Source: a virus
DNA: 42,342 nt
Strand: one strand, 5' to 3'
Virus record (IMG/VR): IMGVR_UViG_3300013122_000002
Coordinates: 1 to 42,342 of that record
Each line of letters starts with the position of its first letter. Positions within the stretch are counted from its first letter, which is position 1. Shown piece by piece: positions 2,291-42,342 of this stretch. The notes below the pieces were generated by a model. That model was not told where the DNA came from, searched no databases, and worked only from the letters and a program-made list of their open reading frames with translations. The position numbers were made by a program, and so were the translations under genes.

Positions 2291-3477
2291 TTCCTGATAT
2301 TGAAATTACCGAAAATGGCATTATAGCTCCCACAACGGATGAAGTGCTCGCAGGTGTATGGGAAATCCTGAAAACCGCTTTTGGCTCAAACCTGAATACC
2401 GCAATGAACACCCCACAAGGGCAGTTAGCAACATCGATCACAGCGGTTATTCAAAACGAGCGCAATAAGTGGATTCAGTTAATGAATCAGATTGACCCGC
2501 AATATTCCACAGGTATTTGGCAAGATGCGATTGGTGAGTTGTATTTTATTAATCGACAATCTCAAACATACTCAATTGCTGAAATCCGCTTGCATGGTTT
2601 AAATGGAACGATTGTCCCCGCTGGATATAGAATCAGCGATGTTGCGGGCAATATTTGGGAGACAACAACTCAACTGATTATTGATTCAACTGGCTATATC
2701 GACGGTTTTGTGCAATGCACTGTCGCAGGGCCAATCGAAGCATCCATTGACACAATCACAAATATTCTTGTTGCTCTTTCGGGGTTAGATCGTGCGACAA
2801 ATACAAGTGCCGCCATTGCAGGTGTTAATGCTGAAAGCCCTGAAAACTTCGAGCAACGTAGGCAAGAATCTGTTTCAGCAAATGCTAAATTGACCGGTGC
2901 TGCTGTGCGTGGTGCTGTAGCCAATTTACCGAACGTAGTCGATGTTTGGGTTAAGTCAAATCCAACAGATGCGACTGTAAATTTTGGCGTGACTAATTAC
3001 CCAGTGACGCGAAACACCCTGTTGTGTTCTGTGGTCGGCGGTGTTGATTATGACATTGCATGGCAGATTTTAGTTAAAGGCGGAACTGGTTGCTCTTTTG
3101 CAGGTGATACAGAAGTTACTGTTTACGACAATGATACATACCCAGTAGACCCGCCCGATTATAAGGTAAAGTTTCTTCGCCCGACATTAAAAGCAGTTAA
3201 GTTTAAAATCACGCTTGAAGACAAAAACGAAATGTCATTGCAAGATGAAAAGGCAATTAAAAACGCTATTCTTGATGCGCTGAAAACTGGAAAAACTCGC
3301 GCACGCATAGGTCAAAAACTCAGAGCTTCCGCTTATGTTTGCCCTGTTGGTAATTCGATTGATTTAAGTCTGCTTGACATTGAGGTAAGCTTTGATGGCA
3401 TAACATGGGCTAATTTTCTTGAGCTTGGCGTGGATGAATACCCAGTAACCACTGAATTTGATATAGAGATTGTCTAA
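2287..3477 (+). CDS. baseplate J-like protein
   Basis: 396 aa. Size, position and sequence character match Baseplate_J family proteins. ATGA overlap with the upstream gene. Confidence 0.75.
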   Translation: MIPDIEITENGIIAPTTDEVLAGVWEILKTAFGSNLNTAMNTPQGQLATSITAVIQNERNKWIQLMNQIDPQYSTGIWQDAIGELYFINRQSQTYSIAEIRLHGLNGTIVPAGYRISDVAGNIWETTTQLIIDSTGYIDGFVQCTVAGPIEASIDTITNILVALSGLDRATNTSAAIAGVNAESPENFEQRRQESVSANAKLTGAAVRGAVANLPNVVDVWVKSNPTDATVNFGVTNYPVTRNTLLCSVVGGVDYDIAWQILVKGGTGCSFAGDTEVTVYDNDTYPVDPPDYKVKFLRPTLKAVKFKITLEDKNEMSLQDEKAIKNAILDALKTGKTRARIGQKLRASAYVCPVGNSIDLSLLDIEVSFDGITWANFLELGVDEYPVTTEFDIEIV

Positions 3478-4115
3478 TGTTTGATGTTAAAGATACTTTG
3501 ATGTCGCAGTATGCAAACAGTCCCGCTATTGTCGGGATTATTGATGGTATAGCAGATGCGCTAGACCCTGAGCATACGGCAGAGGAATTTTACTCGATGT
3601 TATGGCGTTTAAGCTCCGCAACATCGTGGGGCTTGGATATTTGGGGGCGCATTGTTGGTGTAAACCGAAATGTGCAGATGAGCGACCCCGATGCAATCAC
3701 ATTTGGATTTAAGACTGATCCTGTATCCCAAAACTTCACGCCTTTTAATGTCGCTCCATTTAGCGCGGGCAGCGCAAAATTTAACACCTATCGCCTGCCA
3801 GATAACCTCTATAAAGAATTAATCATTATTAAGGCTGCTTCAAATATTCTTTATGCCACAGCACCAAATATTAATAAGTATCTTCAGATGATTTTTACTG
3901 AAAAAGCTTATTACTACATCACTGGTCACATGACAGCAAAGTATATTTTTGAGTTTGAATTAACGCCATTCCAGCGCTTAATTGTCTACACTTTGAAGTT
4001 ATTACCTGAGCCATGCGGTGTGTTAATCTCTTATGAAGAAAAACCAATTGCAGAGGTATTCGGCTTTGACGGTACAGAGTATGAAACATTTGATTACGGA
4101 GTATTCATTCAATGA
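3477..4115 (+). CDS. baseplate/tail-fibre connector protein (DUF2612-like)
   Basis: 212 aa. The N-terminus (YANSPAIVGIIDGIADALDP...GLDIWGRIVGVNR) resembles DUF2612 proteins, which follow baseplate J. Confidence 0.65.
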   Translation: MFDVKDTLMSQYANSPAIVGIIDGIADALDPEHTAEEFYSMLWRLSSATSWGLDIWGRIVGVNRNVQMSDPDAITFGFKTDPVSQNFTPFNVAPFSAGSAKFNTYRLPDNLYKELIIIKAASNILYATAPNINKYLQMIFTEKAYYYITGHMTAKYIFEFELTPFQRLIVYTLKLLPEPCGVLISYEEKPIAEVFGFDGTEYETFDYGVFIQ

Positions 4116-5020
4116 GCAATCCTGAAATTATGTGGTCTAAAGCATTTGCTTGGAACGCCACGAATAAAAACACGATACAAGAGGAGCGGCAGCCAGCACA
4201 AGACGTTCAAGATGCCACGCTCAATGATGGCTTCCCGCTTATCACAATGACCCCACAAGATGCGGGCGGCATTGCTCCAAACGGTCAAGACATGAACGGC
4301 GCTCTTTATGCCATTAGTTCGAACATGGTTCATCGTCAAAAAGGGCTACGCATTCAGTTTGACCCTGCCTACGCTGCGAAAATTGGCGGTTATGATCAAG
4401 GCTGTGTTCTTGCATCAAACGACTACACACGTGATTACATTAGCCTTATCCCGAACAACTTAACCGATCCAAACGGCAGCGGCACTGCGGGACGTTGGGC
4501 TATATATTCGGGTGCTGGCTCTATCGCTTCTGCAACTGCGAGTATTGCGGGGATTGTTAAGATTGTTGATAGTTTATCGAGTACCGCAACGGATGCGGCA
4601 TTAACAGCCAATCAAGGTAAGACGCTAGGAGATCGAACGCAGCAAGCCACTACCACAAATGTAGGTATTAGTCGATTTGCTAATGCGTCAGAGGTTGCAA
4701 ATAAAAGCAATGTTAGCGCCGCGGTTACTCCATCGAATGCCGCCGCAATTGCACAAAGCACAGACTTGGGAGTTGGGCAGACTTGGCAGAATGTTTCAAG
4801 ATCATTAGGATCAACATACACAAATAACACTGGTCGACCAATTCAAATTTCAATCTTTGCATCTGGAAGTTCTGGATCAGCCCTAGCTTTGATTATTGAT
4901 GGTCTTGAACTCCTGAGAACCAACCAATCTGCAACAATCCATGTAACTGCCGTAATTCCCAACGGTTCAAGCTATACCATGACTGGTGCTATACTGAGTA
5001 ATTGGTCGGAGCTTAGATAG
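4112..5020 (+). CDS. tail fibre protein (short)
   Basis: 302 aa. N-terminal GFPLITM..GG..P.G.DMNG..GGY anchor motif. Two fibre repeats (AGIVKIVDS...ALTANQ and VGISRFANASEV...AVTPSN). Confidence 0.75.
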   Translation: MSNPEIMWSKAFAWNATNKNTIQEERQPAQDVQDATLNDGFPLITMTPQDAGGIAPNGQDMNGALYAISSNMVHRQKGLRIQFDPAYAAKIGGYDQGCVLASNDYTRDYISLIPNNLTDPNGSGTAGRWAIYSGAGSIASATASIAGIVKIVDSLSSTATDAALTANQGKTLGDRTQQATTTNVGISRFANASEVANKSNVSAAVTPSNAAAIAQSTDLGVGQTWQNVSRSLGSTYTNNTGRPIQISIFASGSSGSALALIIDGLELLRTNQSATIHVTAVIPNGSSYTMTGAILSNWSELR

Positions 5021-6930: not shown

Positions 6931-6954
6931 AAACCCCTTTCTAGGGGTTTTTTT
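6931..6954 (+). terminator. intrinsic terminator after the tail fibre genes
   Basis: AAACCCCT-TTCT-AGGGGTTT stem-loop followed by a T-run. Confidence 0.8.
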
Positions 6955-6969
6955 ATTTTGTGGTAAAAG

Positions 6970-6978
6970 TGTTATTAT
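6970..6978 (+). promoter_or_regulatory. extended -10 promoter TGTTATTAT (lysis cassette)
   Basis: TGnTATTAT lies between the terminator and ATG 7005. The same 9-mer recurs at 22940 and 42151 in equivalent post-terminator positions. Confidence 0.45.
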
Positions 6979-7004
6979 CGGTAAAACTGATATAGAGCGA
7001 ACCA

Positions 7005-7370
7005 ATGCAGATTTTTAAAAATTTAGAGGAGCATATTGAGCATATTGCGCTTGTGCTTCTCGTCACCGCTTTAAGCATGATTGCTTATTTCTTAACATCA
7101 CCACAACCGCCACGAGAACGAACTAAATCCGCTTTCGCAGGCGGTGTTATTGCGGGTGTGTTGTCATATCCGACATGGGCATTAATCGGCTCAATGACAC
7201 CATCGGGGCATCTTCATGTTGGATGGCTAACCGTAATCATCTTCATTTACTCAGTTTCAGGGCAGTTCATCCCTGAATTTTTACAATCGGTAATACCAAA
7301 ATTGGCTAAAAAGTTATTTAATCGTAGCTATAAGGCCAAGACTGGCGAGGATTTTGAAGATGATCACTAA
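7005..7370 (+). CDS. holin-like membrane protein
   Basis: 121 aa with about three hydrophobic helices and a charged C-terminus (KAKTGEDFEDDH). First gene of the lysis cassette. Confidence 0.6.
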   Translation: MQIFKNLEEHIEHIALVLLVTALSMIAYFLTSPQPPRERTKSAFAGGVIAGVLSYPTWALIGSMTPSGHLHVGWLTVIIFIYSVSGQFIPEFLQSVIPKLAKKLFNRSYKAKTGEDFEDDH

Positions 7371-22225: not shown

Positions 22226-22499
22226 TAATGAGAGAAAGGCTTTTGAAGCGTGGTTTGAGTCACGCTATGACGCCCATTTTATGCAGTTTGCGCTCGATCT
22301 CGACCTTTATGTTGATAAGCACACTCAAACCTGTTGGGAAGCATGGCAAGCATCCGCAAACCGAGAAGGCTATAAGCTTGTGCCTTTGGAGCCGACAGAA
22401 AGAATGCTAGATAGCGCATACAGCTCAATATCAGATAATTTGCATTATGCAGATTTAGAAAATATTTACAAAGCCATGATCGGAGCTTGTGATGAATAA
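22215..22499 (+). CDS. hypothetical protein
   Basis: 94-aa ORF (..AFEAWF..CWEAWQA..). Confidence 0.55.
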   Translation: MNHDNERKAFEAWFESRYDAHFMQFALDLDLYVDKHTQTCWEAWQASANREGYKLVPLEPTERMLDSAYSSISDNLHYADLENIYKAMIGACDE

Positions 22500-33952: not shown

Positions 33953-33955
33953 TGA

Positions 33956-33964
33956 TGCTATAAT
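33956..33964 (+). promoter_or_regulatory. extended -10 promoter TGCTATAAT of cassette 1
   Basis: Starts 4 nt after the upstream stop codon. Exactly 6 nt separate the hexamer from G33971, the first base of the leader RNA. Confidence 0.6.
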
Positions 33965-33970
33965 AATTAT

Positions 33971-34034
33971 GCGGATAGAGTGACGGCTCGAAAACCAATT
34001 AACCTGATTGGCTTCCGCATTAATATTTCAGGTT
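33971..34034 (+). ncRNA. structured 5' leader RNA (three-way junction + pseudoknot), copy 1 of 4
   Basis: P1 GCGGA/UCCGC. J1/2 UA. P2 GAG-UGACGG-CUC. J2/3 GAAAA. P3 CCAAU-UAACCUG-AUUGG. J3/1 CU. The L3 loop AACCUG pairs with CAGGUU at 34029-34. Confidence 0.8.
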
Positions 34035-34053
34035 ATTGATAGAGGTATCAAGT

Positions 34054-34635
34054 ATGAAATTAGTCCATGGTGTTGGTTTTAATGATAGAAAATATATAAC
34101 AAGAATTGATGGGAAGAACACAGTTCAATACTCATTATGGTTTAATATGGTTGCTAGATGCTACTCTCCACATATGCTTAAAAATCTACCAACATATAGA
34201 GATTGCTTTCTATCTGATAACTTTCTTGATTTTTCATATTTCCATGAGTGGTTTGATAATCAGCATGGGCGAAAGCTGTTCGACCCAAATATAGATAAAG
34301 ATCTAATCTTTAAAGGAAATAAAATATACAGTGAGGATAATTGTTTTATTCTTCCTCCTGAAGTAAACGGATTGTTTATTAAAAGCAACTCCAAGAGGGG
34401 GCTTTATCCAATTGGCGTTAATTTTAGGAAAAATGATAATAAATTTGTCGCACAAGTAAACGCAATGGGGAAGCGAAAGACTATAGGGTACTCAAAAGAT
34501 CCTATGGAATGTTTTTTAATGTACAAATACGCTAAAGAAAAAGAAATTAAGCGTGTAGCTAGTGTGTGGAGAGATCAAATATCTCCTAAAGCTTATGACT
34601 TGCTTATGAGTTATCAAGTTGAGATAACTGATTAA
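34054..34635 (+). CDS. AP2-domain / degenerate HNH_3-like putative homing endonuclease
   Basis: 193 aa from ATG 34054. GVGFND..Y..W.NMVARCY; IDKDLIFKGNKIYSEDNCFILPPEVN; AP2-like GVNFRKNDNKFVAQV...IGYSKDPMECFLMYKYA. Confidence 0.6.
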   Translation: MKLVHGVGFNDRKYITRIDGKNTVQYSLWFNMVARCYSPHMLKNLPTYRDCFLSDNFLDFSYFHEWFDNQHGRKLFDPNIDKDLIFKGNKIYSEDNCFILPPEVNGLFIKSNSKRGLYPIGVNFRKNDNKFVAQVNAMGKRKTIGYSKDPMECFLMYKYAKEKEIKRVASVWRDQISPKAYDLLMSYQVEITD

Positions 34636-34674: not shown

Positions 34675-34680
34675 TATTAT
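34675..34680 (+). promoter_or_regulatory. -10 box TATTAT of cassette 2
   Basis: Exactly 6 nt upstream of G34687. Same distance (38 nt) from the boundary motif as in cassette 4. Confidence 0.5.
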
Positions 34681-34686
34681 GAGTAA

Positions 34687-34749
34687 GTGCCTAGATTAGC
34701 TATCGAACATCGGGAAAGCCTACCGACTGGCACACCATATTTTTAGGCT
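34687..34749 (+). ncRNA. structured 5' leader RNA, copy 2 of 4
   Basis: P1 GUGCC/GGCAC. J1/2 UA. P2 GAU-UAGCU-AUC. J2/3 GAACA. P3 UCGG-GAAAGCCUA-CCGA. J3/1 CU. The L3 loop AGCCUA pairs with UAGGCU at 34744-49. Confidence 0.8.
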
Positions 34750-34766
34750 GTAACTGAGGTAGTTAT

Positions 34767-35231
34767 ATGTTTTATAAAGTTGAGTGTGAAGAAACTTTAT
34801 CCTTGATTGATGCATTTATGGAAAAGCGTAATGCATTATATGATCAAGTTAAATTGATTTGTGAAAAGTACGGATTTGAGATGCATCAAACGCATGACAG
34901 TATTCAGTTTGGCATCCAGTTTTACAATATGGTGGCAAACCCAAATACTGAAATTGATAAATCTTTATGGAAGACGAGAAAACAAAAGAATGGGTATTTA
35001 TGCTTATTGCCACGCGCCACAGCAAAGGATCATAAGAAGGAATATGACGCCCTCACCCCAAAACAAGTTGATTATTCAGAGCTAACAAAACTATTAATCA
35101 AGGATGAATTGCCTTGGAATAAGTCTTATGGATACCGCTACAAGAAAGGCGAGTATTTTATGTTTGAAACATCACTACCTGTATCTGATATTGCTATCGA
35201 GATTCTTGGCAGCGAATACAACAAAGAATAA
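34767..35231 (+). CDS. hypothetical accessory protein (cargo of cassette 2)
   Basis: 154-aa ORF with a GAGG SD 7 nt upstream. No family recognised. Confidence 0.7.
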   Translation: MFYKVECEETLSLIDAFMEKRNALYDQVKLICEKYGFEMHQTHDSIQFGIQFYNMVANPNTEIDKSLWKTRKQKNGYLCLLPRATAKDHKKEYDALTPKQVDYSELTKLLIKDELPWNKSYGYRYKKGEYFMFETSLPVSDIAIEILGSEYNKE

Positions 35232-35232
35232 C

Positions 35233-35276
35233 TAGATTAATGCTAAACTAAGCCCTATCAATGATGGGGCTTTTTT
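35233..35276 (+). terminator. 3' cassette-boundary repeat with an intrinsic terminator
   Basis: TAGATTAATGCTAAACTAAGCCCTATC-AAT-GATGGGGCT followed by T6. Homologous to 374-419. The downstream ATG 35277 abuts the T-tract. Confidence 0.8.
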
Positions 35277-35693
35277 ATGTCTATTAAACTAAGAATGATG
35301 GCGAATAGCGTTACAAGGGCAATAAACCCGAATGTAACCAATGCGGATATTTATGTGAACATTGGATCGGAAACAATCGCAGGCGGTAAGGTTGTGCCGA
35401 AATACACCAAGATTGTGAAAGATATTCAGATTCAGGCGATTCAATCAAAAGACCTTGAGCATTTAAACTTGATCAATCAACAAGGCTCATTCTGCTACGG
35501 ATACATTGACGGTATCATTGACCCTATGATACGTGGCTTAGGCACAGGTTTATCCTATGTTGAGTTTGGTGGTGTAAAATGGACTGTCAAATCCGTGGTT
35601 GAGGATTGGCTCAAGTATGCAAGCGGTGACATCGGTAATGCATTGAATGATCAAAATGGCGATTGGGTGAAGGTGGTATTATGGCGGAAGTAG
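35277..35693 (+). CDS. neck / head-closure-like protein
   Basis: 138-aa ORF between the connector genes and the tail sheath. The function is positional. Confidence 0.55.
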   Translation: MSIKLRMMANSVTRAINPNVTNADIYVNIGSETIAGGKVVPKYTKIVKDIQIQAIQSKDLEHLNLINQQGSFCYGYIDGIIDPMIRGLGTGLSYVEFGGVKWTVKSVVEDWLKYASGDIGNALNDQNGDWVKVVLWRK

Positions 35694-40881: not shown

Positions 40882-40882
40882 T
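40874..40882 (+). promoter_or_regulatory. extended -10 promoter TGGCATAAT of cassette 3
   Basis: Overlaps the tape measure stop codon. Exactly 6 nt lie between the hexamer and G40889. Confidence 0.5.
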
Positions 40883-40888
40883 TAATAC

Positions 40889-40951
40889 GTGGCTAGGGTA
40901 GCTCCCGAAAATCGTGCAACCTACACGACCGCCACGTTAATTTTTTAGGTT
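40889..40951 (+). ncRNA. structured 5' leader RNA, copy 3 of 4
   Basis: P1 GUGGC/GCCAC. J1/2 UA. P2 GGG-UAGCU-CCC. J2/3 GAAAA. P3 UCGUG-CAACCUA-CACGA. J3/1 CC. The L3 loop AACCUA pairs with UAGGUU at 40946-51. Confidence 0.8.
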
Positions 40952-40967
40952 ATTTAAGGTGAATGTT

Positions 40968-41189
40968 ATGACAGTTACGGTAAAAGTTGTTGACATAGAT
41001 AAGATTAAAAAAACAGTAACAATTGAAGCTTGGTGTGATCGTGGAGGGCATAGAGTTATGCGAACCCCATTTAGTTATAAGCAGCAATCAAAGAAATCAA
41101 TTGAGTCAATGTTGAGAAAAGAGCTGAAAGCGTTTCAACAACCAGTATGGGGTGGTTTTTGCGTTCAATTCTATTGCAGCGTTGATTGA
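40968..41189 (+). CDS. hypothetical 73-aa accessory protein (cargo of cassette 3)
   Basis: ATG 40968 lies 6 nt after an AAGGTG SD; GTG 40959 is possible. MTVTVKVVDIDKIKKTVTIEAWCDRGGH.... Confidence 0.6.
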   Translation: MTVTVKVVDIDKIKKTVTIEAWCDRGGHRVMRTPFSYKQQSKKSIESMLRKELKAFQQPVWGGFCVQFYCSVD

Positions 41190-41197
41190 TGTAAACT

Positions 41198-41219
41198 AGC
41201 CCTCAATAGAGGGCTTTTT
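41198..41219 (+). terminator. intrinsic terminator of cassette 3
   Basis: AGCCCTC-AATA-GAGGGCT followed by T5. Confidence 0.75.
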
Positions 41220-41232
41220 AATTGGTGAATTT

Positions 41233-41844
41233 ATGGCAATGGCTGGAATGCCGAGTATCCCCAACTTTAAGGGATTGGTAACTGCGGGTACTGACGCTGC
41301 AATCAACTTAGGTGGCGCAGCATTAATCCGCGCTGTATTCGGTGAAGTATGGGGTTTGGTTAATGAATTTGGCGTGCCGATTCTTTTGTCGGATAGTGTG
41401 AAGAACGTTGACTATACAAACAGCTCAACCATTTCTAAATTCTTGATTGAGAAAGGCTCATTTAGCTCATACAACAAAGTCACCGATCCGCGCTTTTTAT
41501 CGGTTCAGTTGATTAAATGGAAAGGTACAAAGCTTGAGAAATCAGCTTGGTTGGCTCAGCTTGAGCTATACGCAAACAGCACACTTAAATTCCATGTTGT
41601 TACACCTGAATACCTATATCGAAATTACAACATTACGCGCCTTGCCTACATGCGCGACAACACTTCAATTCAGATGATTACAGCGTCTATTGATTTAGAG
41701 GAAGTGCGTGAGGTTCAGCTTGAGTTTGGAACACAAGAAGCCAAAGCAGAGCAAGATAATTCCACGGTTGAGGGTGGAACGGTTCAGCCTAAGGAAGCTA
41801 GTCAATCCATGCTGTCGAAACTTGCAGGGAAATTTAACCTATGA
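41233..41844 (+). CDS. distal tail / baseplate-associated protein
   Basis: 203-aa ORF after the tape measure gene. GGTG SD. The function is positional. Confidence 0.6.
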   Translation: MAMAGMPSIPNFKGLVTAGTDAAINLGGAALIRAVFGEVWGLVNEFGVPILLSDSVKNVDYTNSSTISKFLIEKGSFSSYNKVTDPRFLSVQLIKWKGTKLEKSAWLAQLELYANSTLKFHVVTPEYLYRNYNITRLAYMRDNTSIQMITASIDLEEVREVQLEFGTQEAKAEQDNSTVEGGTVQPKEASQSMLSKLAGKFNL

Positions 41845-42159: not shown

Positions 42160-42165
42160 TGTTTT

Positions 42166-42226
42166 GTGGCTAGAGTCATTCTCGAAAGCTATGCAACCTA
42201 CATAGTTGCCACATCATATTTTAGGT
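42166..42226 (+). ncRNA. structured 5' leader RNA, copy 4 of 4 (3' end lies in the terminal repeat and equals bases 1-7)
   Basis: P1 GUGGC/GCCAC. J1/2 UA. P2 GAG-UCAUU-CUC. J2/3 GAAAG. P3 CUAUG-CAACCUA-CAUAG. J3/1 UU. The L3 loop ACCUA pairs with UAGGU at 42222-26. Confidence 0.8.
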
Positions 42227-42244
42227 ATCAATGAGGATTGAATT

Positions 42245-42342
42245 ATGGATTCTATGCAAGCATTTGCGAATGGTGAAGCTAATCGAGGAAAGGAGTTAAT
42301 GGTTTTTGATTGGGAAAAAGCCGTTAATCTAATTAATGAAAA
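42245..42342 (+). CDS. 5' part of the same gene as 26..376 (duplicate created by the terminal repeat)
   Basis: Identical sequence to 26-123, truncated by the window end. Confidence 0.9.
   Translation, partial: MDSMQAFANGEANRGKELMVFDWEKAVNLINE

Follow-up and report, generated by a model that had tools for sequence, protein, structure and literature searches.

An int-alpA leader RNA in an Acinetobacter-type phage: its loop-tail pseudoknot and a second loop-complementary site at the ribosome-binding site

The DNA analysed here is virus record IMGVR_UViG_3300013122_000002 (positions 1 to 42,342; the whole stretch of 42,342 nucleotides (nt) is referred to as the window). The element under study, at positions 34687-34749, is 63 bases long and runs exactly from the first base of helix P1 to the last base of the tail of copy 2, one of four related RNA leaders in the window. 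Copy 2 is a member of the catalogued int-alpA family (RF02996, typed in Rfam as a small RNA (sRNA), its function being given there as unknown), and is not a new RNA. Sequence comparisons across the family confirm the predicted pseudoknot (PK1) between the loop of helix P3 and the tail, and support the original prediction in which it was proposed. The same loop also covaries with a second site (site 2) at the Shine-Dalgarno (SD) sequence of the downstream open reading frame (ORF). On balance, and with some reserve, a portable cis-acting translational leader is favoured, in which the loop of the pseudoknotted RNA would toggle between the tail and the ribosome-binding site.

Copy 2 within the int-alpA family

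The Rfam scan covered the entire window, and its three int-alpA matches are all on the + strand. Copy 2 was matched at 34684-34748 (31.2 bits, E 0.011) in a full-length alignment (model positions 1-71), below the gathering score of 35.8 bits; copies 1 (33968-34033) and 3 (40886-40950) reached 44.7 bits each, both above it. A covariance model (R1), built from the core only and with the tail excluded, recovered copies 1-3 together with a fourth, at 42161-42217 (32.9 bits, E 5e-7), that was not in the seed. Copy 2 scored 49.1 bits under R1, but it belonged to the R1 seed. Copy 4 went unreported in the Rfam scan of the window even at E<=10. The Rfam threshold misses diverged int-alpA copies in AT-rich phages, here two of four.

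Copy 2 aligns end to end with the RF02996 architecture: an 8-base-pair (bp) P1, UA, a short P2, GAAAA, a 5-bp P3 with a CCU-containing loop, and CU, followed by a U-rich stretch and a conserved AGG tail (in copy 2, AGCCUA and UAGGCU give 6 bp). Besides the sub-threshold score of copy 2 and the lack of any Rfam match for copy 4, the window copies differ from the catalogued family in their setting, which is a late operon, before small accessory ORFs and not near int or alpA, and in an SD hairpin and a second loop-complementary site that lie outside the Rfam model. The parts of copy 2, all on the + strand, are as follows.

34687-34733, +: three-way junction of P1, P2 and P3 (Rfam int-alpA match and scripted coordinates)
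34687-34691 and 34729-34733, +: helix P1, 5' strand GUGCC and 3' strand GGCAC, 5 bp (direct reading and scripted mapping)
Between P1 and P2, +: junction J1/2, UA
34694-34704, +: helix P2, GAU-UAGCU-AUC
Between P2 and P3, +: junction J2/3, GAACA (one substitution from the family consensus GAAAA)
34710-34726, +: helix P3, UCGG-GAAAGCCUA-CCGA, 4 bp with a 9-nt loop
34717-34722, +: 5' strand of the pseudoknot, P3 loop segment AGCCUA, predicted to form a 6-bp duplex with the tail at about -8.4 kcal/mol
Between P3 and the 3' strand of P1, +: junction J3/1, CU
34734-34743, +: linker between P1 and tail, ACCAUAUUUU, G-free and U-rich, negative in the terminator scan
34744-34749, +: 3' strand of the pseudoknot, tail UAGGCU
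34751-34765, +: hairpin P4, UAACU-GAGGU-AGUUA, with the SD sequence in its loop and the start codon at 34767; conserved in phage Acba_21

In the RF02996 consensus the loop (CCuU) and the 3' tail (aAgG) are mutually complementary, and the model reaches the tail; the pseudoknot is therefore probably already implicit in the published motif and probably not a new discovery. The 3' extension of the model as far as the tail suggests that the discoverers saw it; the cmscan output itself displays the nested helices only. In the literature searched, int-alpA appears in one paper, as a table entry only; the main text of the discovery paper (Weinberg et al. 2017, NAR 45:10811) leaves it undiscussed, and the leaders go unmentioned in a 2026 paper on P4/P2 hotspots. 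By itself copy 2, as a sub-threshold copy of a catalogued motif whose model very likely already contains the pseudoknot, adds little that is new. What is new for int-alpA is the fourth copy, the moron-like context, the coupling to the start codon and the second covarying site at the ribosome-binding site. Through the role as a cis leader, and a loop that covaries with two sites, an orphan motif gains a mechanism that can be tested.

Covariation of the P3 loop with the tail

The perfect complementarity of loop and tail in copy 2 was found as originally described. Copies 3 and 4 carry AACCUA with UAGGUU or UAGGU, so that the A-to-G change in the loop of copy 2 is matched by the U-to-C change in its tail; the compensation stands, at a measured spacing of 30 nt and not the approximately 28 nt first claimed. 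A second position is compensated as well, copy 1 having AACCUGA with UCAGGUU (G:C) where copies 2-4 have A:U. The remaining features read from copy 2 were likewise recovered: one P1 pair is flipped (C:G in copy 2, G:C in copies 3 and 4), P2 is GAU/AUC by both reading and mapping, and P3 is reduced to 4 bp with a 9-nt loop, the UA, GAA and CU junction bases being kept. The view of copy 2 as the most diverged member holds for the Rfam scores, where it is the lowest of the three copies detected (31.2 against 44.7 bits), but not beyond them, since copies 1 and 2 are equally far from their siblings (53-54% mean identity) and copy 4 is the one that Rfam does not detect. Pairwise identity among the four copies is 48-61%, yet all helices are kept, which supports the proposal of selection for RNA pairing over mere conservation of a repeat at the DNA level. 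Each copy resembles a copy from another Acinetobacter phage more closely (71-82%) than its siblings.

Relatives were collected independently in two sets, with search patterns that constrained neither the P3 loop nor the tail. For set 1 a canonical P3 was used (GCGGG/CCCGC); 44 viral and 88 genomic loci yielded 114 unique sequences with 56-66 distinct loops. For set 2 only P2 was fixed; at least 120 viral loci were collected and 60-63 parsed, with 37 distinct P3 stems and 42-44 distinct loops. Ten Rfam int-alpA matches above the gathering score were obtained in 18 loci checked (16 from set 2).

The nested helices were scored on 86 distinct relatives. Of the alignment cells in these helices, 87.9% were paired (58.1% in shuffles) and 394 were changed on both sides (104 in shuffles); the covariation score was 0.648 against 0.14, and 0 of 500 shuffles reached the observed value. 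Helices slid out of position, as a control, were at most 47.5% paired. G:U pairs are present at many helix positions, and the nucleotides of the three-way junction are invariant or nearly so across the family.

For the pseudoknot, the longest Watson-Crick run between the loop and a fixed 18-nt window after P1 was recorded with one representative per distinct loop, and loops were permuted among sequences (3000-5000 permutations) as a control. The mean cognate run was 5.13-5.25 nt in set 1 (permuted 3.47-3.87, standard deviation 0.12) and 5.55-5.59 nt in set 2 (permuted 3.12-3.13, standard deviation 0.145), and no permutation reached the observed value in either set. Control windows from the same loci gave 2.9-3.2 against 5.2-5.5 for the cognate window (Wilcoxon p 1e-7 to 1e-10). 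Cognate pairing thus beats both permuted loops and same-locus controls in two independent sets of relatives. The pairs are diverse in sequence: CCUUCA/UGAAGG, CCCUG/CAGGG, CAGCCU/AGGCUG and GCAUCCCG/CGGGAUGC (loop/tail), together with UCGUCA/UGACGA, CGUAGA/UCUACG and UGCACC/GGUGCA. Column-wise pseudoknot counts on a MAFFT alignment were rejected because the variable linker shifts the tails out of register, and the register-free permutation and same-locus tests were used for this reason.

Homologous loci in which the loop is unable to pair with the tail were also looked for; a few low-scoring or decayed copies without a matching tail were the only ones found, 6 of 114 canonical members have loop-tail runs of 3 nt or less, and the original prediction survived this check. 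One decayed copy is in phage Brutus (L047:21438-21496; 13.8 bits, loop AUAGCCUA, no complementary tail, about 75 nt of extra sequence before the next ORF). It lies after a small ORF behind the gene that neighbours the tape-measure gene and, judged by position, looks like the slot of window copy 4. Within the phage collection copy 2 has a single ortholog, in Acba_21, where the diagnostic G:C pair is kept (AGCCU/AGGCU). Orthologs of the copy-2 cassette were sought through its protein in viral contigs, with none found. The 15-mer of the SD hairpin (TAACTGAGGTAGTTA) was tried as an ortholog probe and given up; its 106 matches all fell in coding sequence or arose by chance, without a single leader among them.

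Throughout the family, P1 and the tail are separated by a linker with 5% G and 43-44% U, and the tail begins 5-11 nt past P1. An intrinsic terminator or attenuator, in which P1 and the U-rich linker would stop transcription, is suggested by the UUAAUUUUUU-like runs that follow P1 in the AT-rich window copies. This is scarcely credible: the terminator scan calls no window copy, several bases separate the U run from P1, the linkers of GC-rich relatives (UCCUUU or ACCCGA) are not U-tracts, and the conserved tail and SD hairpin downstream would go untranscribed.

The Shine-Dalgarno hairpin, site 2 and the proposed switch

In 144 leaders the end of the tail is 16-24 nt before the start codon, and the segment from tail to start codon folds better than shuffles (median z -1.87). 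Site 2 is inside a hairpin loop in 82 of the 144, and its 3' end is 4-10 nt ahead of the start codon, which in nearly all members is 35-45 nt past P3/J3-1. The SD hairpin and the spacing to the start codon identify the element as a 5' leader and not a free-standing sRNA.

Site 2, the SD-proximal sequence, tracks the loop. In set 1 the cognate value was 4.8-4.9 against 3.8-4.2 for permuted loops, and in set 2 it was 4.88 against 3.59; in neither set was the observed value attained by any of 3000-5000 permutations. For 17 loops of set 2 without CC in the paired segment, the cognate value was 5.0 against 3.84 (0 of 3000 permutations). Such loops, which are not SD-like, include UCGUCA (tail UGACGA, site 2 GACGAGG), CGUAGA (tail UCUACG, site 2 CUACGAGG) and GCCGUC (tail GACGGC, site 2 GGACGGC). 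Since site 2 and the tail are both complementary to the P3 loop, the loop can pair with either the tail or the ribosome-binding site.

According to the mechanism proposed, copy 2 would form the 5' leader of the mRNA that carries the ORF of 154 amino acids (aa) starting at 34767, and would act in cis. The three-way junction of P1, P2 and P3, with its conserved junction bases, would be locked in a compact form by PK1, formed by the P3 loop and the tail one short G-poor linker past P1. The hairpin directly after the tail shows the SD sequence in its loop, at a fixed distance of a few bases from the start codon. Site 2 copies the tail across the family, and the P3 loop can accordingly be paired with either. 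Pairing of loop and tail, the tail serving as a decoy, would leave the SD free and translation on; pairing of loop and site 2 would occlude the SD and turn translation off. In vivo the two pairings would alternate, PK1 being the putative ON state, and transcripts would start at P1. The leader would then be a self-contained control module that travels with the hypervariable cargo of phages, satellites and islands and passes from one to another. If the toggle between decoy and SD is true, it would be a compact natural device for translational control and a marker for cargo-gene slots in mobile elements.

A -10-like [T/C]AT[A/T]AT box is found 4-6 nt before P1 in all four window copies, with an upstream TG in three. 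The hexamer of copy 2 (TATTAT, 34675-34680, +, 6 nt upstream of P1) is without TG and without a good -35, and was negative in a consensus scan. Among the relatives, TANNNT is modestly enriched at the matching offset (20% against 2-5%).

Several points weigh against the switch as proposed. Copy 2 is a weak member (5-bp P1, 4-bp P3, score under the Rfam gathering threshold), and its nested minimum free energy structure is a non-family fold at -20.1 kcal/mol (z = -0.48), compared with -12.7 kcal/mol for the family fold; with the pseudoknot left out of account, a competing nested fold is thus the more stable one by prediction. Within the window, the loop of each of the four copies is complementary to the SD over only 3-4 nt (-3 to -5 kcal/mol) and to the tail over 5-7 nt, so that PK1 should dominate and the switch may be vestigial in this phage. 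The permutation tests take the best register for each pair, cognate and permuted alike, and are not column-wise covariation of the R-scape type, and we infer the alternation of tail and SD pairing from covariation alone. With respect to transcription from P1, only copy 3 passes the two-hexamer promoter scan, in which site totals were not above shuffles, and some relatives begin immediately behind tRNA genes or stop codons, where a promoter would not fit; because copy 3 alone passes, an own promoter is something we infer. The literature searched yielded no experimental study of any int-alpA member. Single-sequence folding of copy 2, which did not recover the family fold, was considered as counter-evidence and set aside, the result being read as that of a weak, pseudoknot-dependent copy.

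The short complementarity in the window is also what a purely structural leader would predict. The element would then be a constitutive 5' module that guards the mRNA end and makes translation independent of the flanking sequence, and the loop would never pair with the SD in vivo. The display of the SD in a hairpin loop and the location of some members at processed 5' ends directly after tRNAs are consistent with this, and a generic function in expression or stability fits cargo genes that are unrelated to each other. The tracking of loops that are not SD-like by site 2 (0 of 3000 permutations, above) would be left unexplained, and this explanation is considered unlikely, although not so unlikely as to be dismissed.

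Near-invariant junction bases (UA, GAAAA, CU) in a three-way junction closed by a pseudoknot would also be expected of an aptamer, and the competing pairing to the SD would supply an expression platform. A small-molecule ligand, as in a riboswitch, or a phage or host protein would bind the junction and PK1, stabilise PK1 and free the SD; in translational ON switches, the release of the SD by stabilisation of the aptamer is standard logic. In preQ1-II, SAM-II/V and NAD+-II, which are translational riboswitches, an aptamer pseudoknot competes with sequestration of the SD. These classes and int-alpA have in common a compact fold closed by a pseudoknot, a strand that can alternatively pair with the SD, and highly conserved junction bases. 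int-alpA differs in having no known ligand, nor a ligand candidate, and in downstream genes without a common function, which is unusual for metabolite riboswitches; moreover, conserved A-rich junctions may simply make minor-groove contacts with the pseudoknot helix. We know of no described riboswitch class with a dedicated decoy that nearly duplicates the SD, as the tail does here. Control by a bound ligand or protein is rated as quite unlikely.

In four loci of viral contigs int-alpA abuts the 3' end of the last tRNA of a phage tRNA array (L245:2271-2325 on the - strand, L246:6181-6235, L261:4038-4094 and L269:1062-1131 on the - strand). The spacing is 0-2 nt, equal to that between the tRNAs, which suggests that the 5' end of the element is made by tRNA-type processing. 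Recognition as an RNase P or tRNA-like substrate through NCC(A) after P1 was considered on account of some GC-rich members and of copy 2 (ACCA), and was rejected as inconsistent, TTT being commonest in set 2.

The CI RNA of phage P4 is related to the C4 antisense RNA. In phages P1 and P7, the C4 RNA has three stems, with a loop that occludes a ribosome-binding site, and is processed from the same transcript (PMC5320573). Like int-alpA, C4 (RF01695) is a three-stem RNA in the leader of the transcript that it controls, its loop sequence sets the specificity, and its setting is a mobile element (PMC5320573). By analogy, the junction might be excised, by RNase P at the foot of P1 or by RNase E in the linker, and its P3 loop might block site 2 or the tail of sister transcripts in trans, for control of copy number or immunity. 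Compatible with this are the C4-like topology, two target-like sites in one transcript, the tRNA-like spacing at the four loci above, the sRNA type given in Rfam, and loops that differ among copies 1, 2 and 3/4 and would be partly orthogonal. C4 acts in trans after RNase P processing through two loops (a' and b'), whereas in int-alpA one loop covaries with its targets; a partner for the P2 loop (conserved UAGCU, GACG or similar) was looked for by eye only and none was noticed. There is no consistent RCCA after P1, and no Rfam C4 match was obtained in the window at E<=10. The first partner of the P3 loop is always 5-11 nt after P1 behind the G-poor linker, a constraint that would be needless for a target in trans, and this fixed short linker favours a cis pseudoknot over a purely trans mechanism. 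An antisense RNA is given a slim chance.

Cassettes, cargo and exchange between phages

The window is from an Acinetobacter-type myophage or prophage and has only short islands of nucleotide similarity to known phages. Its leaders, four per 42 kb in the late structural operon, are located among neck/tail genes, downstream of the tape-measure gene and downstream of a baseplate-region gene. Three of the four head short accessory-gene cassettes within the late operon that end in a terminator; the fourth exits the window. The other leaders, the ORFs and the terminators, all on the + strand, are as follows.

33968-34053, +: copy 1 leader, three-way junction, tail UCAGGUU at 34028-34034, SD hairpin UUGAUA-GAGG-UAUCAA, TGcTATAAT box at 33954-33962 just upstream
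34054-34635, +: ORF led by copy 1, 193 aa, HNH/AP2-type endonuclease-like (phrog_953, E 5e-62)
34767-35231, +: ORF led by copy 2, 154 aa, accessory, function unknown (phrog_2314)
35250-35280, +: intrinsic terminator after ORF154 (also delimited as 35250-35272), 10-bp stem and T run, closing the copy 1-HNH-copy 2-ORF154 cassette
Ending at 40882, +: promoter-like sequence of copy 3, TTAACA-18-TGgCATAAT, 10/12 with TG in the promoter scan
40886-40967, +: copy 3 leader, three-way junction, tail UAGGUU at 40946-40951, SD AAGGUG
40968-41215, +: ORF led by copy 3, 73 aa (phrog_18516), with a terminator at 41198-41215
42161-42247, +: copy 4 leader, P1 UGUGGC/GCCACA, P3 CUAUG-CAACCUA-CAUAG, TGtTATTAT box
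42222-42226, +: tail of copy 4, UAGGU, followed by SD hairpin UCAAU-GAGG-AUUGA and an ATG at 42245 whose ORF exits the window

Weak Rfam matches to 'Trp_leader' (35198-35278) and 'osmY' (41173-41235) are the intrinsic terminators that close both cassettes.

As defined by Hendrix and Juhala, a moron is an additional gene that brings its own promoter and terminator and has entered between two genes lying side by side in related phages. The copy 3-ORF73 cassette (351 bp) separates the tape-measure gene from the gene at 41233-41844, which is 47% identical to its counterpart in Brutus. There only a few bases separate the end of the tape-measure gene (20551) from the start of the next gene (20559); as this neighbour directly follows the tape-measure gene in Brutus, the copy 3 cassette, with its terminator, is an insertion. 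A terminator also follows ORF154, and -10-like boxes precede each leader; the cassettes are moron-like and may carry promoters of their own. Morons are defined by gene organisation and not by a shared RNA leader, and to our knowledge no conserved structured leader shared by many unrelated morons has yet been described as such.

The 81 downstream proteins examined are about 15% identical to one another, and Pfam, PADLOC and PHROG assign a function to almost none of them; the few annotated ones are HNH or EndoVII nucleases, methyltransferases and DUF6387 proteins. The idea that the cargo consists of defence genes was dropped, PADLOC matches being found in only 2 of the 81. In one canonical enterobacterial island the order is int, RNA, a 313-aa orphan, alpA and antirepressor, and canonical members such as L002 sit between int and alpA, whence the name; the window copies are near neither gene, and many members in phage contigs that pass the Rfam threshold are also not beside int, so that the int/alpA neighbourhood is typical but not defining. 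int-alpA precedes hypervariable orphans in both settings: accessory ORFs (morons) here, and cargo slots in the islands. Two or more leaders also occur in other viral contigs, namely L280 (2059-2116 and 2645-2702), L319 (3758-3815 and 4343-4400), L256, L307, L270 and L276, mostly about 480-590 bp apart; this spacing suggests serial cassettes of a leader and a small ORF, like those of copies 1 and 2.

The leaders are portable between phages. In Obolenskvirus phages, a segment of 79 bp at copy 1 (33956-34034) is conserved at about 89% identity, whereas for the ORFs the figure is 44%; the ORF193 of copy 1 has this identity to gp56 of IME-AB2, which carries the same leader. In Acba_21 a leader of the copy-2 type precedes an unrelated ORF, homology stopping a few codons into the gene. 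The leader of IME-AB2 (L001:4011-4100) has a mosaic make-up: in junction and tail it is 82% like window copy 1, and its SD hairpin (UCAAUGAGGAUUGA) is identical to those of window copy 4 and Brutus, which points to recombination between tail and hairpin. In the deposited Acba_21 record (L046:19630-19755), coding sequences for small 'hypothetical proteins' overlie the copy-2-type leader; these calls are probably spurious.

Recombining modules, tandem arrays of cassettes and integrase neighbours could also mark a DNA-level element, that is, a recombination or attachment site or a dispersed repeat with the pairings as by-products. The element invariably has the orientation of the ORF that it precedes, keeps a fixed distance to the start codon, and is complementary to the SD region; its helices contain G:U pairs at many positions and are all kept in copies from the same genome as divergent as those described above; and the breakpoints of homology differ between examples, with no fixed crossover point. 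An explanation at the DNA level is very improbable.

A wider reading of the translational leader, which is doubtful but possible, is that int-alpA, the four window copies included, is a widespread self-contained translational switch with which mobile elements equip newly acquired cargo. A cue (candidate kinds are a ligand, a protein, RNA processing or the state of infection) would shift the balance between the two pairings, and the leader would double as a patch of homology for swaps of cargo between phages, satellites and islands.

Elsewhere in the window, islands at 6951-7063 and 22231-22352 are about 93% identical to otherwise unrelated Acinetobacter phages (MD-2021b and fBenAci003; Ab9). 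R1 finds no int-alpA copy at either, and the island at 6951-7063 is intergenic and without an annotated feature. In one viral contig that also bears an int-alpA leader, a GP20-b RNA (RF03003) was found above the gathering score (L244:4621-4676).

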